Source of the DNA: Chrysomallon squamiferum
Lineage: Eukaryota > Animalia > Mollusca
Assembly (NCBI GenBank): GCA_012295275.1
Contig: CM022665.1
Location: 36,332,001 to 36,396,000 of the forward strand
Direction: 5' to 3'
DNA length: 64,000 nucleotides
In this document: positions 115-53,164 of the stretch, piece after piece
Layout of the letters: every line of letters starts with the position of its first letter
Numbering within the stretch: the stretch's first letter is position 1
Position numbers and translations under genes: made by a program
Notes under the pieces: generated by a model
What the model saw: only the letters and a program-made list of their open reading frames with translations
What the model was told of the DNA's origin: nothing
The model's database searches: none

Positions 115-178
115 ATGGCGGACAGTTCGGAACATGCAGAAAGGGCACGCGAGTTGATAAAAGTTGGCATTTTGACAG
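115..178 (+). CDS. GPHN: Gephyrin exon 1 ([21 protein letters not shown])
   Basis: ATG at 115; IKVGILT is the first strand of the G domain; donor G|GTCAGA at 179, phase 1. Confidence 0.9.
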
Positions 179-3038
179 GTCAGATCAATTTAATTTGTGA
201 ATGTCATAGCATTATACTTATCCCACTGGCACTTACCAGTGGGTTCATTTCAGCAGTAAGATAAAGAAGCAGACTGTGTGTTTTAATCATTTATTGTCAT
301 CAGTGTAAACATTGACATTGCTAGCGGAATTATACTGATAAAAAATGTTATGGGACACATTTCTAACGATTGATGCCTAGGTTTAATAAACGCAATTTGC
401 CCCCACCGTCCACCTCAGAATTTTTCATTATGAATTAATAAATCATGAAGAATGTAAAGGCTCACTTTTAATTTAGTTTTAATATCAACTTAATTAGATT
501 TTCCATTTGAGAAAATCTTTGTGAGTTTGGTCCATAGTTCCTTAGTTGATCGTATGATACGACACGTTCAGCATAATATTTTATATCACCTTTTTATTAT
601 TGTTCGTTTTTTTTTTTTTTTTTTTTTTTTTTTAGTATGACCGTTTTATTCATGCACTAATTAGCAATCAAAGCAAAAATTTTATACATTGAAATTCAAC
701 AAAACATACATCAATACATGTATTTTAAGTTAACATTATCAGCTTGTTATATTTTCAGTGAGTGATAGTTGCTACAGTGGTCAGGCTGAGGACAGAAGTG
801 GAAAAAACCTCAAGCAACTTATTGATGCAAAAGACCAAAATAAAATGTGAGAAAGAAAATAAGTATTTGATTTCATTAACATCAGATATCATGCCTTTTT
901 ACTGCTTACAATCTGCTCTTCCTAGATACTTGGGGCATTTCATGGTGTGAGTCACATTCAAAGGTTGAATGTTCAACAGTGGTATATTGAAAGCTATGAC
1001 TGGGTTTTCAGACAGTTTGTTTGTCCACATGACATAATTTTCATTTGCCTATAATCATTTTGTTTTATATTTTATCTTTTGGACAGTATGATATAAACTT
1101 TTTTTTATGTTATTCAAAAACAAAAGTAAAAGATGGTGATTACAATATTTTAATCAGTTCTAGTTAAATAGTAATATATGTTATTTTAATGGCAATGTAA
1201 TGATATAGTTTAAAACTTATCTTTAGATGTTATTATGTGCTGTATTTCAGAAACATATTTTTATGTCTGATAACTTTATCCAAAAGTGTAAGGAGGAATA
1301 CAGTATTTTGAAAAGCTAATGTCCAGTGGGAATACTGCTAAAAGAACTACCCCAAAAAAGATTATCAGAACTTGTGTAACAGTTTTTTCCTTTTTTCAGA
1401 ATACACGGGGAGGTGGTCGCTAGTGACATTGTTCCTGATGAACTCGACAAAATTAAGGTAAATATCTGAAATACAATTTAGATTAATTTAGAAAATAATT
1501 GATGATATAAGTAAATGATGAAAAATCTTCCATTTACATGAGAAAGAAGGGAATGTGGCAGCCTCCATTATGCAATCTTATCTATTTACATTATTTCATT
1601 TAAAAATTAATATCATTTTCTATTTCTTTTTTTTCATATATATATAAATTTACCTTGTTGTCTATGAATCATTTTGGTATCAAGATAATGATTAATATTC
1701 TATTGCCATGTAAAATAATATTCTGTTGATGTGTCATTATATTTGTGTAGGTGAAATTGGAGGAGTGGAGTGATAACTTGAAACTTGATGTAGTTCTCAC
1801 CACTGGGGGAACAGGCTTTTCTCCAAGGGATTTAACACCAGAGGTATTTGTATTTGCTGACAGCACATTATTTCTGTTGCTTTATAAAAACTATTATATA
1901 CATAAATATTATTATTATCATCATCAGACACAATATGCTAAAATGAAAACAGCAAAAAATACGAGTACATGTGTATATATCTAGATGTATGTGCTTGTTT
2001 GTATTTGTTTTTCACTTTATTAAATGTCATGGAAGTTCAAGCAAGTTAAAAATAAACTAAGTATCCAAATCAGAAATATGTAGATACATAAAATACTTGT
2101 ATACAGTGATATGAATGATAAATATTCAGAAATTTTTCATTACACAGATCATAATGAATCTGTTATAAGCTATATATTTTCTGGGTTTTTTTTCATAATG
2201 TTCAGTTGTTAACTATTATAATGTTGTTTCAGGCTACAAAAGAAGTCATTGAACGAGAAGCTCTGGGTATCACTATAGCTATGGTTGTGGGCTCTCTTCA
2301 AATCACATCACTGGCCATGTTGTCCAGGTATACTTTCAAAAATCTTGTTTAAAAATTATTTAAGTATCATATATTTTTAATTTTTGGTAAAAATTAAATG
2401 TCTGACAACAGCGTAATGCAAAGAAAATACTAGGTAGATGACTAAGAAATAGTTATAAAACAAATTTACATACAGAAATAATTTCTTGATAATTATTTCT
2501 TTTTCCTTTCTATTTTATTTTCTGTTACCTGGAGGTTAAAGCATTATTCTGATATATAAAATGTGTGTATATCTGCATGTTTACATGCATGCATGTTTGT
2601 GTTTTAAACCATATATATTCTCATCTTCTCTCTCTCAACCTCTCCATCTATCCCTGTGTGCTTCACTCTCTCACCACTTAATTATTTTGGAATTATGTTT
2701 AATTACAGTTTTGTTATTATAGGTTTTATATTTAATTTCAGATTAACTTGTGGAATAAGGAAAAGGACATTAATAATTAATTTACCTGGAAGCAAGAAAG
2801 GGTCAGAGGTCAGTTAATTTTGGAATACATCACTTAAAATATTCTTTATAGTATTTTTTCTTCATATAATCATAATTTGTTCTGGCCTCTTTATTAGTAT
2901 TTTTTATTTTTATTTATTAACATTTTATTTTTTTAAATTTACTGGGATTATTATTATGATTGTTATTAACATCGTTAGTTAATTTACTGTTAATGTTAAA
3001 ATTATTACTATTAATTATTATTACTGTTATTACTTTGC

Positions 3039-3075
<37 letters not shown>

Positions 3076-6000
3076 TTATCCATGCAGAAAGAAGTGAAAA
3101 AAATACATTACTAAATCTTTATTAAGAAATATAAAAATCAAATAATTAAAATAACAGTCATAATTGATATGTGTTAATATTTGTTTTTTTCCATGTGTGT
3201 TTTTTTAAAAGGAATGTTTCCGACTGGCTTTGCCAGGTATTCCTCATGCTGTAGATTTGTTGAAAGGACACAGTGACCATGTTAAATCAACTCACCAACT
3301 GCTGCAGTCTGAAGATGTACAGGTAAGAATTTTTATCATTGTTCTTTTTCTTCTACTTCCTCTTCTCCTTATTATTATTATAAAAAAAGAAAAAAAAGAA
3401 AATTGTTTTACTGTAAAGGTTAATGTGTTACATCATCTTTGTATTATGTGGTGATTCTTAATAACTGCAGTTTGTGATATTATTTTAAAAAAAAAAAAAA
3501 AAAATTCTTTCTTCCTAATTTAACAATAACTGATGTAGTGTAACTAGAAAAAGGTCCATATATATGTGAAGTAATAAATATCTCAGACAGTGTTGCTTCT
3601 GAATGACTGTTTTATTTGGTTTTGGCCATCCAGTGAATTTCATAATATAATAAAATCCATTTTTTGCTTTTGATATCTTCTTCAGAAGAAAAACATATCA
3701 ATAATGGTAGATTTGTATTTTGCAGAGGGCTTTTGTTTGGCCCTTACATATTATAATTATGCATATTTGTTTTAATTTGAAAAAGGTAGCCACTTCATTC
3801 ATAAAAACTTGTGTTGTGGAACAGGAGATAATTTGTGTTTATTTTTATGACAAATATATATACACGATAATCATTCCAAGTTGTAGACGTTACTGAATCT
3901 GATACATGATTTCAGATGTTAGTTTATAGTTTACAACAGTGTACAAGTATGGTCTTAAATCTCTTAGTACTTTCATAACCATTTTGATGGTGTATGGTAT
4001 ACTTTATTTGTAAAGATACTTTTTTCCCTTATGTACCTGCATGGTTTGAATTGGTGAATACCATTAATGTCACCTTATTACAGCTGAATGGTGGACAAGA
4101 AATTGTGACACAAAGCACTGATTCTTCAGATCACACTGATAAACAGGAATTTCATGACAGTATCACACAGAAAGAAGCTGGCTCTTTTAGTCTTCCTATT
4201 AAACCTGTACCAGTGTACAGAACCCAGGATGAGACTGGTAGTAACATTGTTGTGAAACATTCAACAAATCAGAATCAAAGCGAACATGCTGTTTTCAATT
4301 CCAAAACTAGTGATGTGTGCAAATTCTATTTGATGACAGATCCATCCAGTCAAAACCAGCATTATATTGTTGTCAACAATATTGTATGTAACAGAGATCA
4401 GGAACAAATAAATGTTGCTTCTGAGCTTGATTCATGTGATGATAACACTGCTGATGTAGAACCCACAGATGTTTCTGATCCACAAGCTGAATTTGAGCAT
4501 TTGTCCAGAAAACCTGTATTACAGAGAAATCAAACCAGTTTGTTGCCTTTAAACAGTGTAATCACTGCACAAAGCTCAAATGTAACTGAAAAAAGGAAAG
4601 CACAAAAAAGCACAGATATTTATGACTTTGAAGAAGCTTTGAACCAGGATGATTCCAGTCTGAACACAGATGGCAAGATAAGCAATTTATCAGGCTATAT
4701 TCTGAAAGCTAACATACACAAGAGCTCTTTTGAAGGAGAAGTCATTTTTGTTCCAGTTGGAACTGAACTTAAGCAGTTCTTAAAATCACATCCAAAAATT
4801 CGTGGCATATATCTGAACAAAGGAAAGCGTGATATAAAACGAGCTCTGGTTACTGTGAAGAGACAGGATGGTGCTGTTGATACAGGAAGCTGGAAGAGAG
4901 GGAAACAGGTTCATGAACGGAATCGATTTGATGACTGGTTTGAACTCACTGAGGAAGGAAGGAAGAAGAAGCTGGAAGTTGAGAAGAATGTTTCAAGAGA
5001 TGTGTATGTTGTCAATTGGTATGTGTGGTGCCCTGGGTATGGAAATTGTTTAAGAAGATGTGGATCATATGGACAGTGCAAGCCAGGTTAGTTCTTCAGT
5101 GATTTAATGGTAATTCAGTTTAAGTGACAAATGGCATTTGCTTTATAAAAGCAGTGAAAAAGAAGTTAATAGAACTTGTGGAAAGAATATAGATAATGAA
5201 TAGCAAAAGAAAACTTTTTCTCAGTTTTCTGTGAAAAAGAAAATATTTGTGATTTGTTGAGCTTAAATGTGATTAAATTCAGAAGTAATTATAAATATGA
5301 ACTCAGGGCAGGCATGAAATTTGGAACTAAATAGAAGAAAACCTATACAAAAAAAGTTCATCTGAACAATTCTATATACTTCTACTTGTTTATTTTATAT
5401 ATTATTGGTGACCAAACTTTACATCAAAAGCCTACATTAAAATATTAACATTGCCATTTGTTTTTGTTTCTTATGTACTTCTTGTATCATATGTCCTATT
5501 AAGACAGTTAAATATACTTTGCTCTTGCATGCTAATATTCACCATCTTTGAGCAAGTCATTGGCAAAGTTACAATCTCTGTCAAATATAAAGAAAAAGGA
5601 TCTATTGATTTATAATATCAAATGTCTGTTTGTTTCAGACTGTCCAGGAAAGAATCACAGGCAGGACAGACACAACTGCAGCTTTATGGTCAACCTCAAA
5701 CTGTATCTTAGCAACCTAAAAGAATGGCGAGTGCACCTCACTGGTTCTCATGTTCCACCTGAATCTGGTTGTGTGTGGAAACCACCCCCACCATACATTC
5801 AGCGACTTTCAGAAGACAAACGTGATGCCATTATTCTGCATTCCAAAGAGACGACAAGTTCTACAAAAATAATGGAGGTTCTGACAAGTGAGCCTGATGA
5901 TGAGATGGAAAAAGCAGCAATTTCCAAGCGTAAAATCAGCAGGTTTCTGTCAAGTATGAAAAAACGTAGAAAATATCATTCCTATGATTATAAAAAGACT

Positions 6001-8312
6001 GCCTCTGTTAGTGAGAAAATGTCTGGAGAAAGTGCATCAGTGTCTGGTGAATTGTCCAAAGATCAAGAAAAAGTTGAAGAAAGTAGAAATGATAACAGTA
6101 AAACTGAAAATTCAGTTTCTCAGACATTCAACCAAAGTACAGATTCAGCCTCATTTGGAACAGAACAAAATATATTAGATGTTAAAAGCAGATCTTTGGA
6201 TAAAAACCTTACTGTTATAAAATGTTTTAAGATAGTTGATGCTTCTGGTAAAGTTACATACTTTAAAACCGGTGATAAAGTGACCTGAGGTAGTAGATAC
6301 TAGACATAGAAAATTAATATAACTTCTGAATTTGAATGTGCCTCAGACAGAATAATCTCAGCTAATAAATGAAAACTGCAGTGGAAAAGTGTTGATATAA
6401 CAATATTTATAACATTTCTGATTACTTCAGACATGTGACACAGGACTTAAATTTTTTTTACATAAAATTGTATTTTTCTAAAATAAAACCATGACAATTT
6501 AAATTATTTTTGTAGAAAAGCTCACTATCTAGCAACAAAGAATCATATCATGCATTCTAAATTATTATTTTGCTTAATTCATGAAAAAAATGGTAAATCA
6601 ACCAGGGAACACTAAAAGTGCAACAAGATGAATGAAATTTTTTATTATCAGTATTTTTATGTAATTTTATATTTATTAATAATCTTATTCAGAAATGCAC
6701 AGCATATTTTTTGCAAATGGATGTGACAGAATATCTGCATGTTCACAAGTACAATAATTACTGTGATAATAATAGAGAAGAATGGAATAAAGAAATCTGT
6801 TTTCATTGATAACAGTGATACTACAGGTATCAGCATCAGAATTTAAAAATGGCAGATTTGATTGATTTGTATTATAGCGTTGCAGACAGTTGAATGCATT
6901 CTACTGATCTCATTGATTCATATATTTTTTCAAACAACTGAACATATATATTTTTTTCTCAATTTTCAAAATTAAATAATGGTTTATTATGTGTTAGTGA
7001 CCACATATATAATTACAGTGTATTATATATTTTATAAAATTTATTCCTTTATTATATTTATATATACTGAAATGGTCTTTGTGTACAACATTATTAATAA
7101 AATTTTAAATAATTATTCTTACAGTTTTTGTTTTGTTATTGTAACTGAAAATATTTTGTAGTTAAACATTGGTTTTACAAATATAATAAGAATACGAATT
7201 ACTTTCCATTATCATAGACTAATAGTTTGAGGTTTTATTAATGCTATAAAAATAAGCTTTAAAAAGCAAAGGTTTAATAATTAATATGACTTGTTATGCA
7301 TATTAAATGTAATTATTTTCCTTTTTATTCTTTTTTCTTCAGAAAAACAGTTAAATTTAATGCAAATAGTTGATAATTTTCATTGATTTATTTATTTATA
7401 AAATTACTACTACTACTATTATTATTATTATTTTAAATATATTTATTGGGACAAACACAGCAGTTCTAATAATTAATAATTGCTTCTGAGTCAGTATACA
7501 ACAAACTTCTTTTAACTTTTTGGAATTATATGAAGCAGAATTCTAGAAACTACATCTGAATATGTAATGATGCATCAGGAAAAAAACTTAATTATTGGTC
7601 ATAGATAATTACTTTGTTATACTGATGATTAATAATTATGTTAAATTCAATACTTAATCTAAAACATGGGAGAAAAGTTGTACAAAAACAAACTGGAGAA
7701 ACTGCACGAGTTAATATTTAACTTAAAATATATTACAGTACAGAGCATATTGTAAAAGAAAAACATAACATTTCTATCAAAGTATTTCATGCCACCACAA
7801 AATGTAACATGCATATCTCCAGTTCTTTGGATATTAATGTAATATCTCACAGTATCAGCTTTTAGAGTTTGGGAATGCATCCAGTCAACTTTGTCAGTCT
7901 TTTCTGTATAGGCAGGCATCCAGTATGTTTGTAATTTTGTTTTCTGTTTGAAATATTATTATCTGGACTTAGATATGTATTATACATAACTGTAAATTTC
8001 TTTATCTGGACTTAGCTGTGTGTATTATATATGACTTAAGTTTCATTATCTGCACTTAGCAATATGTATTGTACACAATTATAATTCAGTTAACAAGGTA
8101 CATTCTATGTGATTTAGTATTGTTAAATAAATGGAAATATGTATGCTTTTCAAAAATAATGTCCATCAATATATGTCCATCAATATATTAAATGAAATTT
8201 TCCCAGCCACATAATGTTTTATTGGTTTTTGTTTTTATCTTGGCCATATATACATACATATGAACAGGTATGCTTATAAGTAATATGCATGTAAACTTAG
8301 AAGATAAAATAG

Positions 8313-8371
<59 letters not shown>

Positions 8372-8888
8372 TATTTTATTATAATTTATTCAATTTTTTA
8401 AAACATTATATATATTATTATTATTTATTTTTTTCATTTATCATTTCTTATCATTTTTAATTTCCTTTCAGCATGGAGACAAGGATATTTTATCACATCC
8501 ACCACCCAGTCATCATTCTGATAACCTACCAGGACATCATGATCATCACCATCATCATCACCATCATCACCACACACACAGCAGTAGTAAGTATGATGTG
8601 ATTTATTTTATAATTATTACTATTAGAAATGTCTTTTGGACATTAACCTTAAATACATGAACTTCATTTTTTATTCTTGAAGCTGATATTTTTTTAAAGA
8701 ACATTATTCTTAACTTATTAATTTGTGAAATAACTTTACTTCTTTTTTGATAATGTTGATAATACAACTTTTCCAGCCTCAGTGTTTTGTATATCAGAAG
8801 TCTAAAAAAATATATATTTATTAATTTATATCCATTGTTTTATTTTATTTTTTTATTTTTTCTTATGTGTTTTTTATTTCTTTCTTTT

Positions 8889-8930
<42 letters not shown>

Positions 8931-11900
8931 ATTATTATTATTATTTTGCATATAAATATATTATGAAGGATTTGTCATATTTTCTATTATGAATATTAGA
9001 ACAAATGTATGAGATGATGTTTTAATGATAAATAGTAAGTCATTGTTAACCCTGACATATATATGAATATTATTACATTGTTCCCCTTTGATTTAATCTT
9101 AGTGATGTCTTGAACACAACTGTAAGGATATTCATAAACACATCTCAGCTAATACAGGTGTATTTGTCACAGATGTTGTGTGGAATATTTCAGAGAGTCG
9201 TTCTGTTCTTAAGATGACAGGTTTTATTTGCTTTCATTTGATTTTAATTTTTTTGTTATTTATTATTATTATTTGATTTATTTATTTTTTGTTTTGTTAA
9301 TACTAGTTATATCAAACCTGCAAGTATAAAACATCTGTCATAATTTTACATATTAAAATTTTATAGCTACAATTTTAATTTATTAGTGTCTTTTTTCACT
9401 TTCTTTTTTTATCAGGTCATGTTGATGCCAGTAAAGTTGCCAGGCGACCAAGAGAATCTCCATATCCAATGATTTCAGTGGAAGAAGCTTTGTCTATTGT
9501 TCTGGACAATGCAGCAGTGTTACAAGTGGAACAGGTAACTCTGAAAGGTAAGCTTGTCCTTAGCTTACTCAGTGTATACATGATGGTCAACCATGTATGT
9601 GTGACAGTGTCCTAAATCTGTGACAGATACTCATTGTTTTCTGTGATTGAAGGGTTTCCTATTTTTCATATGGTTTGTGTGTGAGTGTGTGTGCGTGTGC
9701 GTGCGTGTGTGTGTGTGTGTGTGTGCATGCATGAGAGAGAGAGCACGTGCATGTTTGTGTATGTGTGTTTAAGTGTAGGTATATGGGTTGGTGTGTGTGT
9801 GTGTGTTTGCATAATTTTTAACAGGAACAAAGGATTTTTTTTTTTTTTTAAATATTCTGCTAGAGACATGTAAGAATGTATACATGTATATTACTAAAGT
9901 TAACAAAATATTATTGCTGAAAAAGTTGCCAAATATCAGAAACAAAAATAGCGTCTATATAAAAATAAAAAATACATTTTCTTGTTCATTTGTTGTTGCT
10001 TTTTTAGAAGGTCTTGGCAGAAACCTGGCTGAGGATGTGTATGCCAAAGATCCCTTGCCACCATTTCCAGCTTCTATCAAAGATGGATATGCAGTGATAG
10101 GTGATTTATATTCTTTATATATGTATATTTATATATATATCCTTAGAATACTGAGTTACAAAATGTATTTATAAAACTATTCTGTTTAATGATAGGTGAT
10201 ACTAATAATTTTTATATCATCTGAACAGATTCTAATACTAGTAAGAAAATCAAGGTGGAAAAAGGCTAAAATTAAGTGAAACTTTCAGGGAGATAACTCT
10301 AACACACTTTGGGAAACTGAATAATACTTAACCTTTGTTTCTAACAATTGATTCATACAAAATAGATTGGTAAGACTGAGTGTTGGTGTTTTATCACATT
10401 AAAACTGCTGTTAAATATATCCAATAAAATTAAAAAATATTCAGAAAGTTTAACACAGACTTCAAGCTGAAATGACGTTTATTATAAAGAAGAAAAATAA
10501 AATTACTGATCAGCTTAAAACAGGTGAATATGCAGACTGTGTATATAATTACTGCATAATATTTATTGAAGTAAACAAGTGTGGGTTTTTGTGTGTGGTT
10601 TTTTTTGGCTTTATAGTGGTTAATATTAATTGCACTTGAAAATGGCAAAGTATAATAATAATCGAAAAATGAAGATGAAAGGCCAGATGTTGATTTCCTG
10701 TTGTTTCCTAAGATGGATCATTGCAGGGTTTCATTTTTCTATAGCTGTTGTTGTCTGATCATAAACTCCCAGTTTTATTAAATTATAGACTTATGGTACT
10801 CCAACTTGGGTTAAAAACAAAGTGAAAAATAAAATGATAAATAAATAAATAAATAAATAAATAATAAATAACTCTAAGATCTTAAAGGGAAAGCTGCCAG
10901 AGGGAGATTTGTTTTTAATATTTTTATTCACCATGTCTCTCTAACTGTATCAAATGTTGATATGTCACTGAAAAATAGGATTAAATAAGGATAGTCCATG
11001 AGTCATTTTAAAATAATGCAAAGATTTGTTATTAACTGATATAATTAAATTTTTGTGCCTTTTTTTAATGTAGAATATTATGTGTTACATAGATTTTGCT
11101 TTTTCTCTATATCTAGCAAACGAAACTTAGATATTAACTGAACATGGTCACAATATCAAGATGAAAATGTTAGCAATAAATAACTTTTCATTAACTGGGA
11201 AAATGTCAGAAAAAGAAATGTAAATAAATTAAATACAGACAGACGCACAGGGAGGCAGACAATAAGATAGGAATAAAGAGGGATTGATAGATAAACAAAT
11301 ATATATAAATAGACAGATAAATAGATAGATAGAGAGATAGATAAACAGACAGACAGAAAAAGTTTTACATAGGGATTGGTAGATACATAGGCATAGAGAG
11401 ACAGACAAAAGGAGAGATACATTTCCAGATTCTTCATGTTGTTGTTGATTGTTGTTTTACAGATCTGATGTCACAAATATCATGTCTCTCATTTATTAAT
11501 TAGTTTATCCTCCCACACTGTTTTTGAGATTTCTCTCAGTGTTAATATCGTCTTTAAACATTATCTAACTGGTAAGCCTTGAATCATGCCTCTCATAATA
11601 ACAAAGCTCATCCTCATGCTTCATTATTTTGTAATCTGCACCAACTCCCAGGTTAATTAATTGTCACATCTGTCACTTTGTGCACAATTATGATTGATAT
11701 AGGTATTATCATCTGTTGGTAATAGTATCTTAATTATTTGTTAATATTATTTTATTTTTCGTTTGCTTTTTTTTTTTTTTTTCCTTTTTTTTTTTTTTTA
11801 TATCTATCTTACTATCTGCCTGTTATCTACATTTACTTAATCTACATAGTAATAATAATAATAATAATAATTTGGTCCATGCTTTTTCTTCACTTGTTGT

Positions 11901-14900
11901 ATTCATCACAGAATTCTTGAGTTATTATAAAGCCATTAAATAGAAAGTAAAAGTAAAAATAAAATAATTTAAAAAAAATGGGCATAAGCTTTGGAGTAGA
12001 GTATTGTCCATGAAATATTTATTCCAGCCATCATATTCTATATAAAAATTGACAAAATAAATAAATTAATTAATTAACAACAATAGCAATAATTCAGAAA
12101 ATCAAAGGATCAAAGCAGAAATAAATTTTTAAAATCTAACATAAAGTTACATATTTTGAATACGTTTGCAGTTTTGGATGTGGGAGTGTGTATGTGAAAT
12201 CGGAGGCAGTGTTGTAATTTCGAAGGTGGAAATGGTGATATGTTGTGATTTTCCAGATGGGCTTTATAAGGGGTAAAGACAAGGTTATGTCATGCTTTTC
12301 AAGGTGGGAGTGATAAGGAGGATGGAGGAAGTGCTAATTTGGGATTTTCAAGGTGGGAGGAAGTGAGTTATGTTTTGCAAGCTCAGAGTATGTCTAAGAT
12401 GAGGTTGTGTTGTGTAATGAAATATAATGAATTAATTAATCTGATTGTGTGGGCATTGACAAAGAGCTAATAAGCTTCTACTTACGTTAAATGTACAAAA
12501 GTAATAAAGATTATTTCCTCATCATCTGTTAATTACTGCTTGGTATTTACGCTGATGTTAATTACTCCTTTTAATAACCTGCCATTTAAGTTTATTTAAT
12601 TTTTGCCTTCACATTTTACTATTTTAATTCATATTTTTGTATCACTCGTTTTTATTGTTATTCTTGTTGTTATCATTATAGTTCTTACTTTTATTATTTT
12701 ACTGTGGTCTTCATCATCATAATTGTCATTCTCATCATCATAGTTTTTATAAATGTTTTTTTTTTTTTTTTGGTAATTTATGACATTTTTCATCTTTCTT
12801 TCTTTTATGTTTTTTCACCTGTAACCTTTTTTATTTTATTTTTTTCTCTATTAGTATTAATTTTTAAAAGATAACATGACAGGTGAAAACTATGTATATA
12901 TAAACTTTTGTAATTAATTTTTTTTAGGAACAATATCACCAAATTAATTGCAAATAACTGTTATTATAATACAGTTTTATTGAGATGTGAAATCATATTT
13001 TGATTTATGTATGTACAAACTGAATCTTGTGCAGATACAAGAAAGGAAGAAAAGAAATATTTCTTTATGATAATGAGTGAAACAAAGAAACAATGAATAA
13101 AGGTTACTGAATACCAAAAAATATAAAAATGTAATAAAGAAAACAGTAAACTTATGGATAAACAGAAAATAATTAATTTACAGAAAGAAGAAAAAAACCA
13201 GTAAGCTTACGAATAAAAAGAAAACAGTAAGCATATGAATAAAAGGAAAACAGTAAGCTAATGAATAAAAAGAAAACAGTAAGCTTATGAATAAAAAGAA
13301 AACAGTAAGCTTATGAATAAAAAGAAAACTAAGCTTATGAATGAAGAAATGGTAAGTTTATGAATTAAAAGAAAACAGTAAGCTAATGAATAAAATGAAA
13401 ACAGTAAGCTTATGAATAAAAAAAACCCCAGTAAGCTTATGAATTAAAAAACTGGCAAAAATTGATGAATTTTAAGCATGAATAAAAATAAAAGAGTAAA
13501 ATTAAGAATAGAATTGGGTTACAAATAATGTTTTGTGTGTGAATGTAGATTTTTCTGTCATTTATGTCATCTCATTAGAAATTTGGGATTTATGCAAGTT
13601 AATTTACAGACTGATACATTACTTGTTTCATTTCAGCTTCGGATGGTAATGGTCTGAGAAAAGTGATGGGGGAATCTGCAGCAGGAGACATGGTAAGCAA
13701 AAAGTATTCCAGAGCTTATTTAACCAACATTCTTTTATTGCTTTGTCCAAGATGAACAGCAGGAGGCAATGGTAAATAATAATTCTGCTTTATCTCTGTC
13801 TGTATAAGCTGCATGTTTTATAGAAATTCAATATAAAAGATTAGGAACTGTCTTGTACCCAAAGCCAAGAATTCTAACCCTTATATGTAATAAATAAAAT
13901 AAAAGTGAATTTGTAAATAAAAGTTTTAATTCATAATGTGATTTTTATCCAAAGTTTATACCTATATTATACATGATCATATGTATGTCATTAAATTAAC
14001 TTTGTAGTAATGTTCAGTGCAATACCTGGGTTAGGACTTGTACATAGATAAATGCTGTATGTACTGAAAATGCTTTAACCTCAAGCATATGATGTGTTGT
14101 AATGTTTTTCATGTCACACTTTTGTTGAGCAAGGAAATATAGTAAAGTGTTTATGTGATAGTATTACAGTTGTAATAATAACAATAGTAATAAACATTAT
14201 CATAATTATGTTAATTATTATAATGAAACATGCCATAATACATTTGAGAGAAACAGCAGATGGTGATTAAAAAACAAAAGTTAAAAACAAAAAATTAATA
14301 AAGTTTGTAATACTGTTTAAAGATTTGCATTTTAATTTTTAGGAGGGAATTCTATACTTATATCACCAACAGGAAATCTAAAAAAAAAAAAAAAAAAAAA
14401 AATCATTAGTATATCAATATTTTGTTTCACATTTTGTATATTATGTTTTCTTTTTCATTTAGTTTATTTTTAAAATTCTGAAAATAGTATGTTTACTTAA
14501 CATACATAACCTTTCTTTTTTGTATTACTTTTTATGTATGTATTCTTGAATCAATACAATTTTATATATCTTTATTTAAAATTGTTAACATTCTTTAACT
14601 TATTTTTTACTTTAGTTATTTTTTAAGTTTTTTAAAAATATTTTTTTAATTTTCTTTATATTGTAAACTTTATTTTCTTAGATTTAAATATATATATATA
14701 TTTCTTCTTTTTTTAATATATATATATTTTTTTATTTTTTTAATATAATTTTTATTTTTATTTTTTTAAAGTTTATTTTTAAAGTATTTTCCTAGAAAGG
14801 TTTATGAACTGACATACATATCAGCATGTTTACTCTGCGATTTGATTTTGTTTAATGAAAGATTTTATTTAAAGATGTGCCACCTATCAACAAGTCCCAC

Positions 14901-17900
14901 ACGCTCTCCCCTTACTCTGGACCAGCCTATCAACGCACAGACAAATCGTTTCCAAGCAGATTATGAGATTCCTGGAATGCGCCATTTAACCACATTCATT
15001 TTGTTTATTGTAGCTCCCATTTCAAAGGGTCATGGGGGTAAAAGATATTTGATTTTACTCTTGTTGATAAGAGAATGGCTCATGCAGTTTCTTCCCTGAA
15101 AATGGTTATTTTCTGATTTACCAAACAAATTCTGTCTATTTTGATTTCTTATCTTGTGGATTGTGTGAGTGTTTTGCCCCAACTTACAAATCAGATTTGC
15201 CAGATAATATGTTTTTACCTCAAGCAGGGTCTTTTGTTTGCCCTTCTGAAATAAGCTCTGCACAAATAAACTTTCAAAGTTTTATTGGCATGTAAGCATA
15301 AGTAAGTAAAGAAATATGAGTGGTGCTGAAGTGAAGTGGGATATCTAGCTAAATGTCATTATTATTATTACTGCTGATGCTGCTGCCACTGAAAATTTAC
15401 ATCTTAGGATTCCATTAAAGTCCAAACTGTCACTTTCTCAAAGCCTTATGGTATTTTAGCAGAAAGCATAGACATTTATGAGGTATCTGTAGATGAAAAT
15501 ACTACTGTAAATGTACAGTGGATATGTGAATACAGAAATGGATATCCATATAAGAAAACAATAAAGTTCATGTAGCTTTGGGTGTGTAAAGAGGAAAGTG
15601 GTAATGCATAGGTGCCATGGGATTCATTTGTCTTCCTTGCCCACATCTGAATAAAATAAAATAAAAAAGTGATGTGACATGCATTAATTACATATAACTG
15701 GTACAGTTGACAATCGCTTGCATCATTTCATCTGTTAGAATTCTAAGCACAAACAACTCAAACTTGACACTAAGTTAATAATAGACTTCAGTTGATTACA
15801 CGAAGCAACTCAAAGTTGATTGTAAATGGCAACATACTAAAATCTGTTACTCAAAGTTGACACAGAATGAACAACACACTAAAAATCTCTTACTCAGAAT
15901 TAACAGTAAGTTAACAGTACACTAAAATATGTCACTCACATTCATTTTGACAATACGTGAATAACATACTGAAGTCTGTTACTCAAAGTTAATTGTGAGT
16001 GCACAGTACACTACATTTATTACTCAAAAATGAACAGTAACTAAAATCAATAACTCAAAGTTGACAGTAATTGAACAGTACACTAAAATGTTACTCATTG
16101 TTCATAATGAAAAGTACACTAGAATCTGTTTCTCATTCTGTATGTGGATTGAAATCAGCTTTACATATATCAGAAGATTTATGATCTGTATCTAGTTTAA
16201 AACACTCTGCACCATTTGTGTACTTAATAACACAAATATATGCATCATTTTAATCTAAATGTGTGGAGATATGGGTCTAATTTTATAGAAGATACCTCAT
16301 CTATCTTTATTGCGAAAGCTTCACTACTAGCCGCTCTGATAGAAATAAACACACCACACACACAGTTGTTAATCAAACTGCACTAAAACATCATATAATC
16401 AGCACATCATTTATTTTTGTCTTTCATTATGTTTACACAATGGACCCCTTGTAGCTGGGTACATCTTCCATGTGATAATAGGTTGAAGAGCTTGTTTGTA
16501 AAAGCATGTGTCCAGGCTGATATTATGTGTGTGTATTTTTAGGTACAAGAAACATACTAAAAGTGTATATATAACGTATGTGTGTGTGTGGATCTCCATA
16601 AAGATATAGATTTAGATACAGGTATACAGATGTAAATTTAGATATATATAGATACAAATATGTATACCGATGAGTTCTCATCATTATATGCATACACAGG
16701 GTACATACATACAGTGCTTAGAAATAGATCATAATTTGACTTTCTTGTAAAAATAATACTTATAGAATTTTAAATATACCCTTTTTTTTTAGTATCAAGC
16801 CTTTATGTTGTGATTAAAGTGTTAAATTTAATCTTTTGAATATTTTAAATGTATTATAATTTGTTTTTTATTTATTTTTTTATTTTTTTTATAATAGTAA
16901 TAATTATGATAAATTAAAAGGACATTGATGCTTACATAAAATGGGAAAAAATGTAAGACTACTTTCATTATTCACTGATAAAAGATAAAAGCTAAAAAAT
17001 GTATGTATGAACAATATATGGATAAAGAGTAAAGGTTTTAAAATGTTAATGAATAAATAAATGAATAATAAATAATAAGTAAAATTTTGTAAGAATACAT
17101 AACAAAAGAAAAATTAAAGCTTTTATAATGAATTAAAATGTGGAAAAATGTGTTTTGGAATGTCAATAAATGAATAATGAATAAAAGAAAGGAAAATGTT
17201 TACAATATTGGTGAATAGAAGGAAGAGTTTTTAAAATTTTAATAAATGAATAATGAATTAATAAGGGAGAAAGTTTAAAAAAACCTGAAGAAATAATAAG
17301 TGAATAAAAAAGGAAAATTTTAAAAGTTTGTCAGTGAATGACTAAATAAAATAAGAGATTTGAAAGTTTCCAGAAATTAACTTTAAAAAAAGGACAGATA
17401 CTTAAAAGTTAAATTATCTGAGGAAACAAGAAATTCTTTTTATTCTTTATATTCTTTGTATGTTTTGATAAAAATCTGAATCTCAGAATGGAATCAATGT
17501 ACTAATAATAGTTTTACACAAGACTGCATTACTTCATAAACATCACTGGATAAGAGTCCAGAGAGAAAAAGCATGAAAGAGTTTTAAAAAACAAAAACCT
17601 ACTTGATGTACATAAAAATAAAGTATACATAGACTGTTATCAATTTCTATCAAAAGCTACCAGGATTTGTTTGTCAGTAAATGCCATTAATGTTTTTGAT
17701 TAGGTAAATCATATATCAAACGTTATAAAAACAGGTAAATATAGAGAGTGTTGCAGCAACATTTAAAAAAATAAAAATAAATAAATAAATACATTTTTTA
17801 AAATTTATTTTTAATCTTAGAATGAAATAAGAAAATATACACATCAGAAAGAAAAAAGGAATTTCAAATAAAATGTGAAAACTACAAAAAAAAAATACAA

Positions 17901-20000
17901 AAATACACAAACAATGTTTACTAATATATTTTTTAGAATGTGACATTTGGAAAGTTTCAAGACATAAAAAACAGTGTATATGTATTTATATGTGTGTATA
18001 CATCTGTATAGATGTGTGTGTGGGTGGGTGGGTGGGTGTGTGTGGACTAGTGGGGGCTGTAAGAAAAGCTAAACAGAAATGTCTCCAGGAAAGATCCTAT
18101 CAGAATGTTTGTTAAAACATAGAAAGTAATGAGCCATTGCAAGTGATAACCAATGAATGTAAAATTTGTGATGCCTTCATGAGAACAAAGTGGCACTTTG
18201 TGTTTTTCTGGCAGTCCTCATTTGTAAAGAATGTGATGTAACAGTTGAGAAAATTCTTGCTTTAATGTTGTTTGGTTAACAACACTGGTGGTAATGTGTT
18301 TAACAACTAATACATTATTTTATGATGATTAGACATTTGTGGCATAAGGTTATTGTTACATAATATTTAAAAAGGGGATCTTAGTTACATACATGCATAT
18401 CTGTACACTCATGCATAAATACCACATAAACATACGCCCTCACGAATGTCAGTGCAGACTGTAGCTCAGTGTTAGAGTGCTCAACTGATTTATGGTTGGT
18501 CACAGGATAATCCTTCACAATAGATTCCAGCCATTTTTTCAAAACTAGTTTATCAGTAGCCAATCTGATGGATGCACATACAAACATTTCCTTGACATTA
18601 ATCTAGAAGTGGTAGATCATCAGTTTGCAACTTTTAGAACTTTGCTGTGACTTATATAAATTACTTCTTTCCTAACCAATATCCACATCCACATCTGATA
18701 GTGATGCCAGCTGATTGATCAAATACTATGATATATACTTTTCTTTCTATTGGAGTCATTTGATCTATTTACTGAAGACTGTCAATGAAGTCGAATATGA
18801 ATAGCTCTAAATACATTATAGCACATATATATTTGCAAGTGACAAGAGGTTTCCTCTCTTGCATCACGATACAAAAACAAAATGTTTGAATAATTGTGTT
18901 CTGAAAAATGAACTGATATAATAGTTATTTTTTCCTTCTTTAAATTTTTAACTTAACTCTCTTCTTATATATGCATAGACAGAGGTATATGTATATATTC
19001 GTGTGTGTGTGTGTGTGTGTGTGTGTGTTTATATGTCTGTCTGTTTTACCTTCTGTGTAAGTTTTGACATACACTTCAGCAATTAATACACAAACAGAAT
19101 TGACATCACAAACATATAATATAAAAGTGCACTTTAGTCTAACATTAAGTGAAATGTTTGTGTTTTTTTTGTTTTGTTTTTGTTTTAAAAAAAACAACTT
19201 CTCCATCTGTCATCAAATATGTTTTATGCTGTCTAACGAGATGTTTGATAAAAACACAGAGTTTTTATTTTTAAATATTTTTATCTTCGTAGTAATCTGG
19301 TTAGGGGAGGAATGTTATTAAACAAGTTAGCAGGATATGAAATCATTAAGTGTGTATGATATGATGGAAAAGCAAACAGTATTGACCCTGTTACTACTTA
19401 CAGGTGGTTTTCTTAACTTTTTTACACTTCATTACATTTACCACATAAATATTACATTCTTGTACTGGTTACTAGAAAAATATATGCTTGAATGAGGCAA
19501 CTAGGTACATGAACTTGTTAATTTATATAGAATGTGTTAATATATTGTACATTTTTATATAGAATGTAATTATATATTGTTCATTTTTATGTGGAATGTA
19601 TTTATATCTACATTTATATATAGAATACACTGATATTTTGTAGATTAATATGTAGAATATATTTATACATATATTTATAAATAAATGTGTTTATGTTTAT
19701 GATACGAGAGTTAAGTTGTGTCTGATGTTGAATGTTATGATTTATGATATTTACTAAATGACATTAAAATTCATATTAAATATGTATATTAAATTTCATC
19801 AAGAGGTTTTAGAATAATGTAAAATGTTTAGTGTTATATATTTTTACAATAAAGTCACAGATTACATTAATAATACTTTAATAGTAATATATATTTTTGA
19901 CTTGGTATAGAATACAAGTCTTGAATTTGAATATTATGATCTTATAAAGTAAATAATAACAGGGAAATAATCAGATTTTATAATATCTTAACAGGATTAC

Positions 20001-20043
<43 letters not shown>

Positions 20044-20168
20044 GACCAACTTTATTAATATCAAAGGTTTATGTCCAGTAACAAATAAAACAAATCATAT
20101 GAAATTATACTGATTGCATTTAAACTGTTGGTACCATTACAAAAACATTTTTACATTTGTATTTCTTT

Positions 20169-20215
<47 letters not shown>

Positions 20216-21513
20216 TATAACTGTTATATCAGAATGTCTATTGATGATATCATTTTGTTTTATAAATCAGTTTTTATTTCAGTGCAATTTCCTAGCAATC
20301 TAATAATAAACATAGGCCAATACATTCATTGTACACTTCTCTTTGAAAACTGAACACGGCATTATAAACTCTAAATGGATGTATAACAGATATATAATGT
20401 CATTTTAGTAATATATATTGTAGATTGAAATACAGTATACAATAAGATTTGAATGATAAAGACAACAACTTACTATGTTAGTAAATTAAATCTGTATAAT
20501 ACACATATAATGTTGTTTTAATAATGTATACTGTAGATTTAAATATAGTATACAATAAGATTTGAATGATAAAGACAACAACTTACTATGTTAGTAAATT
20601 AAATCTGTATAATACACATATAATGTTGTTTTTAATAATGTATACTGTATTTAAATAAATTAAATCTGATGAATATATTAATAAATTAAATCTGTAATAT
20701 ATACATAATGTTGTTTTAAAATAAAATAAAAAAAAAAATAAAAAAATATATATATAGTATACAGATTTGAATGATGAAACCTATGACTACAATACACAGA
20801 AAATATGCATAATACATACACAGTAAAGCATTTTTTGAAAAATATACATTAATGACTTTTTAAAACAGCACAACTGGAACTGTAATGTTAGGAAAACTAT
20901 GTGTTATCAGTGAAAGCTTAATATAATAAATATCTCATGTCTTTCTAAAAATATACATGAAGACTTTTAATATAGAATACAAGTTCTGAATGATGAACAC
21001 TACATCTACTATGTGTTCAGTAAATGAAAGCTATTTATAACTAAACTACAATGACAGCAAAGAGCCACAGTTTTGGAAATGAAAACAGATGGAGAATCTC
21101 ATAAACAACTGATGTCTTTTTGTAAATACTAAGGAATGGTCATAAAAATCTTATCTCATCACAAGTGATGGGTTGGGTTCCCATCATGGGTAAAATAGAT
21201 TTCCCACCCACCTATATGAACATTGATAGAAACATTTTTTTTTTTTTTTTTTTTTTTTTTGTTTGCCTTCAAGTGTTTAATAATTTATATGTCAACATTT
21301 ATAAAGATTCTTTTATCTTCTTGATTTGCTGTTTGTAAGATATATATTTCTATATATTAAATTATCTTATATTATATTATATTATTTTTTTTAATTATTT
21401 TTTATTTTAATTATTATTATTTTTATTATTATTATTTTATTATTATTATTAATATGATTATTACTATTATTATTATTATTACTACTACTACTATTTTATG
21501 ATTCAAAGTAAGG

Positions 21514-21566
<53 letters not shown>

Positions 21567-21934
21567 TCATGTGTGCATGCAAATGTATGTATATGTGAAA
21601 AGGTGTGTAAGTTCATACATGTAAATGTTTGTATCTGCTTACAGTATGATGTTGAATTGGTTTTACACAGGGTATTTTGTTGATGCAGTCCATTAAATAT
21701 CCATTAATCTATTTTATGTAATCAAAAAACACACATAAATTGTCATTACCTGGTTATATATCTTTTTAAGTCTTTTTATGTGGTTTTAGAAATTACATGC
21801 AAATGAATTTTAATCAATTTATTGCTGGAAAATATTTAATGTTTTTCAGTTAATGTAAAAAGTGTTATATTTCTAATTTATTTATAAGTCTGTGTAAATG
21901 TTATAATAAAATTATATTTTATGTCATGATCATA

Positions 21935-22011
<77 letters not shown>

Positions 22012-23084
22012 TTATGCAACAAAACTCATGAACACATAAATATATAATCCACAATGTGAAAAATACAAATTATTTTAAAACCCAACCATGAGAAGTTAAA
22101 AATATACAAGGAATCTCCTTTGGCATGTTTTCATTTTGCATATTTCTTAAGACCTGTTATTTTACTGCCATGGTTTATTATTAGCAAACGTTATCATCAC
22201 TTTCCATTTCACACACACACACACACTCACACAAACAAATTAAAAGCTACAAAATACAACAGCACTTCAAAATATATTCCTATTACTAAATACTTTTTTT
22301 ATCACTTCTTTGTTTTCCTTTTTCCTTCAGCCTGTAAAGGAGCTGACTTCAGGATTTTGTGTGAGGATAAACACAGGGGCTCCCATTCCACCTGGTGCTG
22401 ATGCTGTTGTCCAAGTTGAAGACACAGTCTTGGTCAAGGATGCTGATGATGGCAAAACAGAATTGGAAATCCGTATTGAAGTTCTGCCTAAAGTTGGCCA
22501 GGATATCAGGTTCAGCAAATAAACTTTTTGTTTTGTACAGTAGCTTTCTTAAAGTATACCTAGTAACACATAGTCTAAATACAATTTACAAACCTCCATG
22601 TCATTTGAATGTTTCAATAAATTGACACCAGACTTTATTAATAAAAGAGTTTTGTGATAAGCCCAGTGCACTGCAGTTTTACTATTCACATTTCTATATA
22701 CAACAAATTTGTGTCACCAAAATATATGAAAGTATAGAAAATATATTAAGCCTTTTGTTCAAACTCCCACAGCAATACCTTAATCTAACATACACACACT
22801 AATTTGTACAGCTATTCCACAAGTCTGTAATTACTATTGATGCATGAAGCACCATTATTCAAGACTTTTGCAATTTCATTCATACATATATATATATACA
22901 TACATACATGCATATACAACACTCCAATTCAAAATTTATATAACCTAAAATTACTCTTTTGAAACCTTTATATTTGTGCTCTTTAAATATTTCATTTTAT
23001 TTATTTTTTTATTTTTTTTATGACCATTTTTTTCCAGACCTTGAAATGCATATATAACAAAAATCCTTTTCAGTGTAACATCTT

Positions 23085-23122
<38 letters not shown>

Positions 23123-23750
23123 TTTTTTTTTTTAATTTTTCATATATTCTATTTTTTAATTTTTCATTACTTTGTTTCTGTACATTACCATTTTTACTCT
23201 GTTACTCCAAACTTGCAAACCCCCCACATACTGACATACACAAATCCCATTCAGTTTTTACATAACCTTCAAATTTATTACACTTTTAAATCCTTAATGT
23301 TCATGTTCATTATCATATTTTTTTCTCTCCCTCTTCATTTTGTTGTTTTGAACTGTTACCTATAGTTATTACATCTGTAGTTCTTGTTAGTGTTTTGCTT
23401 TCTTTTTTAACTTTATAGCAGGAAATGTAAAACATCCAATTAGTTCTGGCTCATATGACCTGTAGCTGAATGTGTTTCCAGAAACTATTCAGTGTGGAGA
23501 AAAATGAAAATATTATCACTGTAGAAGTAAAACATTATCTCTCAGTCATTCTCACTCCCTAACTCTTCTTATTTTCTTCTTTCTGGAGTTTTTTTTTCTT
23601 TTCTTTTTTTTGACTATCCCTTCTCTCTGTCTTTCTGACTTTCAGATTTGATTTTATTTCTGACTTTTACTCTAATTTTATTTCTCAACCTCTCATTTTC
23701 CTTCATTCTGTCTGTCATTCCTTTTCACTAATTTTCTGCCATTTTCTGTT

Positions 23751-23849
<99 letters not shown>

Positions 23850-26499
23850 GTTTCTCAGCACCCTTCTCTCTCACCTACATACTTAGTTATAAAGGTGAAA
23901 GACAAGATGGTTCTTTTCTTTGGTGTCTAAACAATTATTAACACCAGACAGCAACACACTTAATGTACAATAATGAATTATTTTAAGAAAAAGAAGCCAG
24001 AAATACCTTCTGACACACTTTGTAAGAGCAAGTGCACTGTGCATGTAATCAGATTATTATCACCAGCTTAATACACAAATATATAGATATACTAATATGA
24101 ATAAAATGCAGTAATTTCTTTCAAATGAAGTATTCATGAATGTTCACACATTTAATACTATTACTACTACTTCTACCACTCCTACAACTACTACTACTAC
24201 TACTACTTCTACTGTTACCTTTAGAACCACTATTTCTACTGCTCTTGTTGCTTCTGTTTCTCCTGTTATTATTAATATTGTTGTTGTTAATATCATCACT
24301 TTATTATTATCTGCATCATCGTTATCATCATTATATTTATCATTATTCCATTATTATCATGGTCATCATCTTCATAATTATTACTGTTACTATTCTGAAT
24401 AGGCCAAAAGGATCTGATATAGAGAGTGGTGAAAAGATTCTGTGTAAAGGACAAAAGCTGGGTCCCTCTGAGCTGGGTCTGCTAGCCACGGCGGGTGTGG
24501 TTTCAGTGTTGTGTGTCGGGCAGCCAGTTGTTGGTGTCATGTCTACAGGAAATGAGGTAATAACTCTCTTAGAAATAGAAACTATGTTTTCTGACTTTAA
24601 GTTTACGAAGTATAAGGTGTCTGTGTATGTGTGTGTGTGTATGTTTATAAACATTTAGTGCTTATTTTGTTTATTGCTTTTACCAGCCTTTGTTTAAAAT
24701 AAAGATGAGAAAGTAACAAGACTTAGATGATGCATGAAGGCTAACATTTTCCCATTTTTCATCTGATGTTATTTTATCCATAGAAATGTAAAAATATCCT
24801 AAAAGACTGAGGATTTTGAAATTATGCAATGATTTTGCATTTCTCTGTCAAAATGATACTTTAAAAAAATAAAAAAAAAAAAAAATAGAATAAGAAATAA
24901 TAATACAAAATTTATCATTAGCAGAGATTGTTGTTAATGGACAGATAAAACAATGATGTAGAAAATATGCCAGCACTTTTTTGTTGTTTTATTTTTTATT
25001 TTTTTATTTTTTGTGGGGAGGTATTATGTAATATACTATTTGTATATAATGGTTTCTAAAGTTCTTAAAAATGTATTTGTTTTTAGTGTACTGTATTCAT
25101 TATTATGTTTTATTTCTTCTTCTGTTTTTCTTTGTTTATTTCTTTTATTTTTACTTTCATTTATTTTTTCTTTCTTTTCTTTCTTTTTAACATTACTTTT
25201 TTCATTCTGACATTGTTTTATTTTTTTCCATCTCTTTCCAGTTTTCTACTATTTTTCTTCTGTTATTTCTTTTTTTTCATTCTTTTTATCTTTTTTCTTT
25301 CCCCCACAGAGACTAAAGTGTCAGAAAATGTCTTACATAATTTTTTATTTAAAAATTATTTATGAAAACTCTGAAAAGATTATCTTACATGAATATTTAT
25401 TTTTATCATGAATATTAGTTGGTTCAAATAATATTTACAAACATTAAACAAATATCAGTCAAAGAACTGGCCCAAAATCTTTATATTAAGGCCACTATCA
25501 ACATTTTATCTCCTGTTTATTTTACAAATAATAAATTACAATAATTACAACTTATTCCAACTATTCTGATAATGAAAGGAAAATAGGAGGAGGCAAAGAT
25601 AAGATGTTTAAAAAAAAAAAAAAAAATTAAAAATAGAAGTAGAAGAAAAAGAAAAAAGGAAAAAAAAGTGAAATTTTTGGAAAGTGTTTCTTGGAACCAT
25701 ATGTTGCATATAATAGCAAATGTTGGATAACATCCATGGACCTGTGATATGTACTTTTTGAAAAGTATTCTTTACTAAAAGTTATCCAGCAGTGGTTGTT
25801 GTTTTTTCACTATGTCAGTTTTAGAAACAGAAAATTTCTTAAAGTTATGCACATACATATGGCCTGTAACAATAATTTTCGGCTTACGTCAGTCTGATGT
25901 TATCCCAAAAATTCCTGTGATGACTTTAGTTGTAATGTTTTTTTTTACATTCACAGTTTGAAAATATATACATGCACATATGCACACACACACACACACA
26001 CATTAATATCATCAATAGCATCAGTATTTTAAAGGAATGTACATTGTTTTGTTTGAAAAAGTTGAAACAGAAAAGAAAAGAAAACATTTAATTAACATGG
26101 TGTTAGCTAGAACAAATTACAAAATTGAAAAAGACAAAACATGTTAAAAAGATATCAGTTGGGAAAAACAAACCTCTGGTTAAATCATTTTACATATTTT
26201 AGATTTGAATCCATATCTTGAAATATTTTCCATTAAATCTCCCACACTTTCACAAGTGAATGACTTTACAGTGGTATGATTAATATGGCAACACTTACGA
26301 ATTCTTCCATCACATTTAATATTAACAAATATGGATAATTGTTGTCATGTGCTGGAAGAAAAGGAAAGTTTTATTTTTAAGATCTCCTTTTTTTCTTTTT
26401 TATCTAGTTGTTATAGGTTAAGCAGCATAAATGTCATTTTGTACTCTTGAATGTTATGAAAGAATGTTGGAATGATGGAGAAGAGTAGGGAAAGGGGAA

Positions 26500-26583
<84 letters not shown>

Positions 26584-28699: not shown

Positions 28700-28738
<39 letters not shown>

Positions 28739-30299: not shown

Positions 30300-30341
<42 letters not shown>

Positions 30342-35301: not shown

Positions 35302-35338
<37 letters not shown>

Positions 35339-36704: not shown

Positions 36705-36757
<53 letters not shown>

Positions 36758-36816
36758 CTCTCTTTCTCAGAAACATACATATTCACTCATACACTGACAG
36801 ATAAGCACAAGTATAC

Positions 36817-36863
<47 letters not shown>

Positions 36864-39650: not shown

Positions 39651-39681
<31 letters not shown>

Positions 39682-39684
39682 GTT

Positions 39685-39715
<31 letters not shown>

Positions 39716-44555: not shown

Positions 44556-44633
<78 letters not shown>

Positions 44634-45550: not shown

Positions 45551-45590
<40 letters not shown>

Positions 45591-45617
45591 TCTTTTGACA
45601 TTTCTTAACATTATTGT

Positions 45618-45691
<74 letters not shown>

Positions 45692-48020: not shown

Positions 48021-48060
<40 letters not shown>

Positions 48061-51308: not shown

Positions 51309-51345
<37 letters not shown>

Positions 51346-51933: not shown

Positions 51934-51964
<31 letters not shown>

Positions 51965-52678: not shown

Positions 52679-52709
<31 letters not shown>

Positions 52710-53130: not shown

Positions 53131-53164
<34 letters not shown>

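Follow-up and report, generated by a model that had tools for sequence, protein, structure and literature searches.

A gephyrin isoform that probably carries the DNA-binding end of a Mutator-type transposase in molluscs and other bilaterian animals

The gephyrin gene of Chrysomallon squamiferum contains, between its G and E domains, two exons that almost certainly derive from a Mutator-type (MULE) transposase, namely its DNA-binding end, as comparison with DDE-bearing transposases indicates. Our explanation of the locus, which we consider probable, is that this end was captured in a gephyrin intron and became a pair of alternative last exons, giving a gephyrin product that would bind DNA in the nucleus. 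The window (the whole stretch of 64,000 nucleotides that was analysed) is AT-rich animal DNA and, by tblastn, is occupied almost entirely by one gephyrin gene on the + strand. A sequence-only reading had recognised the finger in these exons as transposon-derived but overlooked the host. It placed the start at 5017, about 310 bases too far downstream; homologue alignment and a profile scan show a conserved domain of ~230 aa that begins at ~4705. The features are as follows.

115..3322, + strand: gephyrin G-domain exons (tblastn, GT-AG chain, motif census)
115-178, 759-846, 1400-1457, 1751-1843, 2233-2327, 2742-2808 and 3212-3322, + strand: the individual G exons
4084..5086, + strand: alternative exon A, with a phase-0 acceptor, a polar linker of ~205 aa and then the N-terminal part of the captured domain
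4618..4635, + strand: IYDFEE motif in the exon A linker, 38 aa ahead of the domain
4705..5086, + strand: captured domain, first half (helix, basic strand with the invariant G-K-R-x-x-K, long insert, strand leading to Cys1, then Cys2-Cys4)
5087..5638, + strand: intron of 552 nt, GT..AG, phase 1, separating Cys4 from Cys5
5639..6548, + strand: alternative terminal exon B (coding 5639-6288, stop 6286-6288)
5641..5751, + strand: captured domain, second half (Cys5, His, H-x-C, two strands with an invariant Trp, G-x-H)
5803..5973, + strand: three-helix helix-turn-helix, ending in the basic patch KRK-x9-KKRRK
8472..55092, + strand: rest of gephyrin (His-rich linker exon from 8472, E-domain exons 9416-55092)

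Exons A and B thus lie inside the gephyrin gene, in the interval between the G and E exons. The last G donor is in phase 0, and the G-domain motifs GGTG, D-x-TPEA and NLPG are all intact in the motif census. In a boundary search in which several boundaries were set by hand, the G exons and exons A and B join into one open GT-AG chain of 742 codons, and the splice form that omits exons A and B keeps its frame across the three exons tested. Exon B is transcribed 3' of its stop to at least 6548, with AATAAA at 6364 and 6482. The His-rich linker exon of the window (8472-8586) has two in-frame donors 3 bases apart (after 8583 and 8586), and His-rich gephyrin linkers are present in Owenia and a chiton too.

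The captured domain recurs far beyond this animal, with homologue scores of E 1e-33 to 1e-117, far past chance; the nearest named relative, from the gastropod Gigantopelta aegis, is 76% identical. A gephyrin G domain lies N-terminal to it in 32 of the 36 long homologues examined (35 named and one from Logan); four of these 32 models continue into the E domain, and the other four of the 36 are without G. Named carriers of both domains include gastropods, bivalves and a chiton among molluscs, Owenia (annelid), Lineus (nemertean) and Lingula (brachiopod) among other spiralians, and three Branchiostoma records, sea urchins, sea stars, a brittle star and Ptychodera among deuterostomes, with Patiria likewise carrying both. 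In the window, as in amphioxus, sea urchins, Owenia and the chiton, the domain has gephyrin's G on one side and E on the other. For Branchiostoma lanceolatum and Strongylocentrotus, second annotations read G, captured domain and E through the same exons, which indicates that the locus position is common to deuterostomes. The full profile scan gave 226 matches at E <= 0.001; among the 150 of these 226 that were listed, mostly without a taxon name, no named match came from vertebrates, tunicates, arthropods, nematodes or cnidarians, which suggests that the domain was lost from those lineages.

We propose that exons A and B are spliced as alternative last exons, producing a protein of G domain plus captured domain that is predicted to be nuclear and to bind DNA. 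Gephyrin G domains form trimers, and the G part would supply oligomerisation such that three DNA-binding modules are displayed. A WRKY-GCM1-like sheet with two zinc ions, together with the helix-turn-helix, would read DNA; the basic tail behind it, presumably NLS-like, would provide nuclear entry; and a YDF-like motif in the linker would recruit a chromatin partner, most plausibly cohesin. The fusion might then act as a multivalent transcriptional or architectural factor after the manner of the BTB-FLYWCH mod(mdg4) isoforms. Judged from sequence, the G-fusion isoform is very likely real, and its predicted nuclear DNA-binding role is probable.

What the G domain contributes can be approached through copies in which it has decayed. 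The Patella and Lottia fusions (P0002, P0009, P0138, P0139) have lost GGTG, D-x-TPEA and NLPG but kept G and captured domain together, as might be expected if the fusion gene had been duplicated and stood alone next to a normal gephyrin, and four ENA/JGI proteins (P0144, P0146, P0148, P0149) have lost GGTG and D-x-TPEA and likewise kept both parts. Since the G fold is retained where catalysis has probably gone, a scaffold role is favoured. An alternative is that the isoform is a metabolite sensor, in which molybdopterin held in an intact G site controls DNA binding and ties gene expression to the status of the molybdenum cofactor. The isoform does, in most species, use gephyrin's own G exons, with catalytic motifs intact, and the closest solved folds include Aft2, an iron-responsive factor. 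However, the intact site is accounted for by the sharing of exons, the limpet and ENA/JGI copies kept the fusion after losing catalytic motifs, and a linker of 120-560 aa stands between G and the captured domain; we consider a sensor improbable. The four ENA/JGI proteins also stand out in other ways: a strongly degenerate G and a divergent domain share one uninterrupted ORF, the first His is absent, and they form a long, fully supported branch.

The captured domain itself would, in the scaffold reading, be the DNA-binding module that G presents. After splicing, exons A and B read C-x5-C-x3-C-x5-C-x3-C-x4-H-x4-H-x-C, followed by a WRVH..GSH strand, a helical module and a basic patch, as the sequence-only reading had described. 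It counted six Cys and four His: across 33 full-length rows, the six Cys and three of the His are kept in all 33, as are two Trp and G-K-R-x-x-K, but the fourth His, that of WRV-H, is kept in only nine. The domain is therefore better described as 6-Cys/3-His, and the core that it has in common with transposases as 6-Cys/2-His. Identity between phyla is 42-61%. The helical module resolves in fold searches as a helix-turn-helix, which is not recognisable in oyster copies (P0089, P0090, P0014 and P0065-P0068, including oyster-like records).

This pattern bears on the idea that the isoform works through protein contacts only, entering mixed G trimers to tune or relocate full-length gephyrin while the captured domain has ceased to bind DNA. 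Shared G exons would make mixed trimers likely, and the oysters' loss of the helix-turn-helix fits such a role. Retention of G-K-R-x-x-K and all nine ligands in 33 of 33 rows across the bilaterian tree argues against it, as does the strong divergence of the degenerate-G copies from gephyrin G, and we find it very unlikely.

A structure model of the first 179 residues, built from an 87-row alignment, reached pLDDT 84 (an earlier nine-sequence model reached 65, left the Cys region unmodelled and was uninformative in Foldseek). The sequence-only reading had named hits to GCM/WRKY/FAR1/CaRF folds as support, and the leading hits fell there at modest scores: WRKY33 (Z 4.2, rmsd 3.9, 79 of 79 residues aligned) and Aft2 (Z 4.1, rmsd 3.1, 76 aligned) head the list, though weakly, and GCM (PDB 1odh) is row 12 (Z 3.0, rmsd 4.5, 80 aligned). 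Seven of 50 rows are WRKY-GCM1 superfamily members, namely WRKY33, Aft2, WRKY1, GCM, two more WRKY chains and a NAC domain, and Foldseek ranks WRKY18 as most probable (prob 0.75, E 0.42, with a TM of 0.59 by target). These scores agree with a four-stranded core sheet but are below the level that stands alone, and two long inserts in the modelled domain may lower them. By features, the Atlas returned GCM, ALS2CR8/CaRF, ZSWIM3_N and FAR1 clusters at 0.84-0.89; by structure, with both modules in a poor model, it returned MULE/AFT proteins (TM 0.44-0.48). In the nine-sequence model, the C-terminal helices resemble the helix-turn-helix of Myb and of transposases (Z 5-6.6), an arrangement that is common. 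Row 9 of the Atlas list, a plant methylmalonate-semialdehyde dehydrogenase cluster with an AFT domain in 29% of its members, may be a parallel enzyme/MULE-type fusion.

In the model, strand 101-108 leads into Cys1 and strand 144-150 comes after Cys6, and both Cys are kept in 33 of 33 rows. The hallmarks of insert-containing WRKY-GCM1 domains are present, with a 31-residue insert between the core Cys, a strand-4 Trp in 33 of 33 rows and a helix (20-28) before strand 38-44, whereas strand 4 ends without the HxH or HxC dyad, HxH being the defining feature of WRKY-GCM1 zinc sites, and has a single His (G-x-H, 33/33) with a His upstream of it in 9/33. As in GCM, a second metal module, putative here, is inserted between two core Cys; unlike GCM, the captured domain has no Pfam GCM match and a different gene context, and the ligand spacing of GCM after the first three Cys differs from its own. 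Pfam gave no match to the captured domain in the window halves, 13 fusion proteins or nine full domains, in line with the earlier suggestion that the domain may be unnamed, and GCM, FAR1, FLYWCH, ALS2CR8 and AFT were not among the matches of the nine full domains at E <= 10 or of the window halves. PDB sequence searches with the domain profile and the transposase profile returned chance rows only.

The closest described relatives are the insert-containing WRKY-GCM1 domains of MULE transposases and of factors derived from them such as Aft/Rcs1, which, in the available text of Babu et al. (PMC1702500), share the helix before strand 1, the insert between core Cys and the strand-4 Trp, and in transposases lie N-terminal, before DDE and SWIM, as the captured domain does in its MULE relatives. 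Unlike them as described there, the captured domain has one His after strand 4 in place of HxH, and it departs from the families of that text in its H-x-C before strand 3, its insert with four Cys, a further ~55 aa inserted between strands 1 and 2, and its want of a Pfam match. By analogy with the layout in that text, Cys1, a His, Cys6 and a His would form the core zinc site, and Cys2-Cys5 the insert site. With the HxH dyad missing and no match in Pfam, we call the domain, on the model, WRKY-GCM1-like and unnamed, and not a member of a described family.

RNA data bear on whether the exons are used as proposed. The intron said to split the finger is removed exactly, all 552 nt, in RNA contigs of all four runs (all from one study), and inside the intron RNA depth is zero in the bins that lie clear of the exon edges. 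RNA contigs cover parts of 4211-5083 in exon A; cover starts at 4211, with none over 3950-4210, a gap that speaks neither for nor against the fusion, and the joint between the last G exon and exon A was not seen in the RNA of C. squamiferum. In relatives, host and transposase-derived domains appear to share one transcript, as seen in RefSeq isoform models and P0005, a full 935-aa fusion encoded on a 2,952-base Logan contig. This contig is most likely a transcript, as 2,952 bases for 935 aa leave no space for introns. Single-base differences in the C. squamiferum contigs, 5745 T>A (two runs), 5770 T>C (two) and 5852 C>T (one), are probably alleles.

Could exons A and B be an independent nested gene with its own promoter, the G fusion being an artefact of gene prediction? 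An in-frame ATG lies at 4333 within exon A, four of the 36 models are without G, and the G-to-A joint is absent from the RNA contigs, given where their cover starts. Against this, the phase-0 acceptor is in frame with G, 32 of 36 long homologues have the fusion in models of several annotation sources, one short Logan contig encodes it complete, and the separate degenerate-G genes keep the join, making such a nested gene very unlikely.

The fusion isoform, then, appears to be genuine, and its second half can be traced to a probable donor family. The sequence-only reading had attributed the finger to a Mutator-type transposase, which is borne out by MULE proteins in which the domain is N-terminal. 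In P0167 (836 aa), captured domain and helix-turn-helix occupy 12-229 (E 7e-26), and downstream come G-I-D, I-D-K-H and T-N-N-x-x-E, then a SWIM-type motif, C-x-C...C-x-H; P0170, P0196, P0174, P0197 and P0163 likewise have the domain ahead of MULE DDE motifs, the P0167 value being the best. Among the distant matches, at E 1e-15 to 1e-28, are proteins that open with the captured domain and continue past it. Of nine transposase-like proteins aligned, five match Pfam MULE (best 2.3e-8), a result that reading had named as support, and six a related RNaseH-like family; P0197, alone among the nine, exceeds the curated Pfam MULE cut-off (34.8 vs 27.6 bits). Named transposase-like relatives come from Mytilus galloprovincialis and from the arbuscular mycorrhizal fungi Diversispora and Gigaspora, in agreement with a remark in the earlier note that similar Cys patterns occur in such fungi. 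All nine transposase-like rows keep six ligands (three insert Cys, both of H-x-C and the final His), six of the seven displayed have Cys1 and Cys5, and the first His is absent. We infer two zinc ions from the eight ligands held in common with transposases.

P0167, P0170, P0196, P0166, P0174, P0197 and P0163 make up a MULE family of Glomeromycota and animals whose DNA-binding domain is without a Pfam family. One of these, the mussel transposase fragment P0163, carries the label 'gephyrin' in NCBI. Divergent copies of the domain also occur outside gephyrin, in P0187 (Branchiostoma Hypp167), P0198 (Octopus), P0172 and P0154, and are possibly separate domestications; among the non-gephyrin copies, one is C-terminal in a 1,909-aa protein and one is kept between two Octopus species.

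The fusion's spread across molluscs, an annelid, a nemertean, a brachiopod, amphioxus and echinoderms points to a single early-bilaterian capture. The internal intron is also widely held: among 95 further matches, 63 have only Cys1-Cys4, 29 only the His cluster onward, two both and one neither, so genomic ORFs break at the same place and the intron appears common to relatives. A tree of the domain from 31 rows splits deuterostomes from spiralians (support 92/84) and recovers genera and several orders, with gastropods and bivalves each unresolved. When 15 transposon or solo rows are added, 27 fused rows fall on one branch (94/85), apart from fungal-type transposases, and three partial or long-branch animal transposon or solo rows fall inside that branch in the free tree (two changes); constraining the 27 fused rows as a clade is not rejected (p-AU 0.62), which is no proof of a clade. 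Common host, position and intron are, in this comparison, a stronger argument for a single event than the tree. Together these observations make a single capture into the gephyrin G/E intron in an early bilaterian likely. Searches of the window bear out the earlier statement that neither a DDE domain nor terminal inverted repeats are visible: with seven transposase-like proteins in tblastn, the best match outside the DNA-binding part had E 0.9, and 3500-8280 held no terminal inverted repeats, only short AT-rich pairs, 12 in number and 16-28 nt long, none of them like a terminal repeat. Related transposase-like copies in mussel and other animals might speak for a transposon that inserted recently in a single lineage, or for a cluster of Cys and His that arose by chance, but such a reading is refuted by conservation across phyla with host and internal intron in common at 42-61% identity and by the lack of any DDE remnant or terminal repeats in the window, and we give it next to no credence.

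Between the G and captured domains, in a linker that otherwise cannot be aligned, a short motif recurs 31-67 aa ahead of the domain, for example as IYDFEE (the window), IYDFND (amphioxus), VYDFEE (Lingula) and VFEFDP (a brittle star). Because the transposases begin directly with the domain, linker and motif would have arisen after the capture. The pattern [YF][DEN]F occurs within 20-100 aa upstream of the domain in 18 of 35 linkers against 0.82 expected by shuffling, a figure to be read knowing that the looser patterns were picked after seeing the data and that related species among the 35 linkers are not independent. Among these linkers, those of heterobranch snails and several clams do not have the motif. 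Another regular expression, after Li et al. 2020 (14/35 vs 0.11 expected), was set aside in favour of a published consensus for strong cohesin binders, [Y/F]-[D/E]-F-[D/E]2-4, in the available text of PMC11789155. The consensus as given there fits two of 35 linkers, IYDFEE of the window among them. The likeness to the YDF and YEF motifs of CTCF and ANKRD11 described in that text lies in an aromatic-acid-Phe core with an acidic tail in a disordered region, to which YDFEE conforms; unlike those cases, the consensus fits few of the linkers, the protein is otherwise without likeness to CTCF, and cohesin binding is putative. From sequence the motif appears real, while cohesin as its partner is a guess, and a doubtful one. 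Somewhat more doubtful still is the wider proposition that the gephyrin locus also encodes a bilaterian-old, trimeric, cohesin-anchoring DNA-binding factor, combining a Mutator domain, a CTCF-like YDF motif born in the linker and an enzyme-domain scaffold, which molluscs, annelids, brachiopods, echinoderms, hemichordates and amphioxus would have retained and which would have disappeared from vertebrates and ecdysozoans.

Host-transposase fusion genes formed by alternative splicing were described by Cosby et al. (bioRxiv 10.1101/2020.05.07.082677). As in the cases of its main text, the gephyrin fusion would carry a transposase DNA-binding domain on its own exons, keep the host transcript and drop the catalytic domain; those cases are from tetrapods, younger than ~350 My and mostly joined to KRAB or other chromatin domains, whereas here the host is a metabolic enzyme and the carriers are both protostomes and deuterostomes. 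The words 'Mutator', 'MULE' and 'enzyme' are absent from that main text. A second parallel, in the available text of PMC1702500, is Drosophila mod(mdg4), where a constant N-terminal oligomerisation domain (BTB) is joined to alternative 3' exons with a WRKY-GCM1-fold finger (FLYWCH); gephyrin differs in having one terminal exon pair, an enzyme fold in place of BTB, an unrelated finger and no evidence of trans-splicing.

Our literature search, which lay outside subscription journals and the supplements of the Cosby preprint, found no prior description of a gephyrin-transposase fusion. In the accessible part of PMC13262936 splice variants are removed and such a fusion is not mentioned, and 'gephyrin' is absent from the text and five supplementary files of PMC10027918, a survey of transposon-derived factors in animals. 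Relative to known host-transposase fusions, what sets this one apart is the age, the enzyme-domain host and a MULE DNA-binding subtype outside every Pfam family.

The fusion would be one of the oldest captures of a transposase in which the steps remain legible, from host gene and intron to exon phase and donor family; for Pax, such steps are obscured according to the main text of Cosby et al. Many invertebrate phyla would have a second, unrecognised gephyrin product beside the well-studied enzyme and synaptic scaffold. The fusion also brings out an unnamed domain for which Pfam has no family, along with the MULE family that is its donor. The domain can also mislead annotation, as in the case of the mussel fragment P0163 named as 'gephyrin'. 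If the YDF motif binds cohesin, the fusion would be a candidate loop-anchoring factor besides CTCF, in animals whose 3D genome organisation has been little studied.
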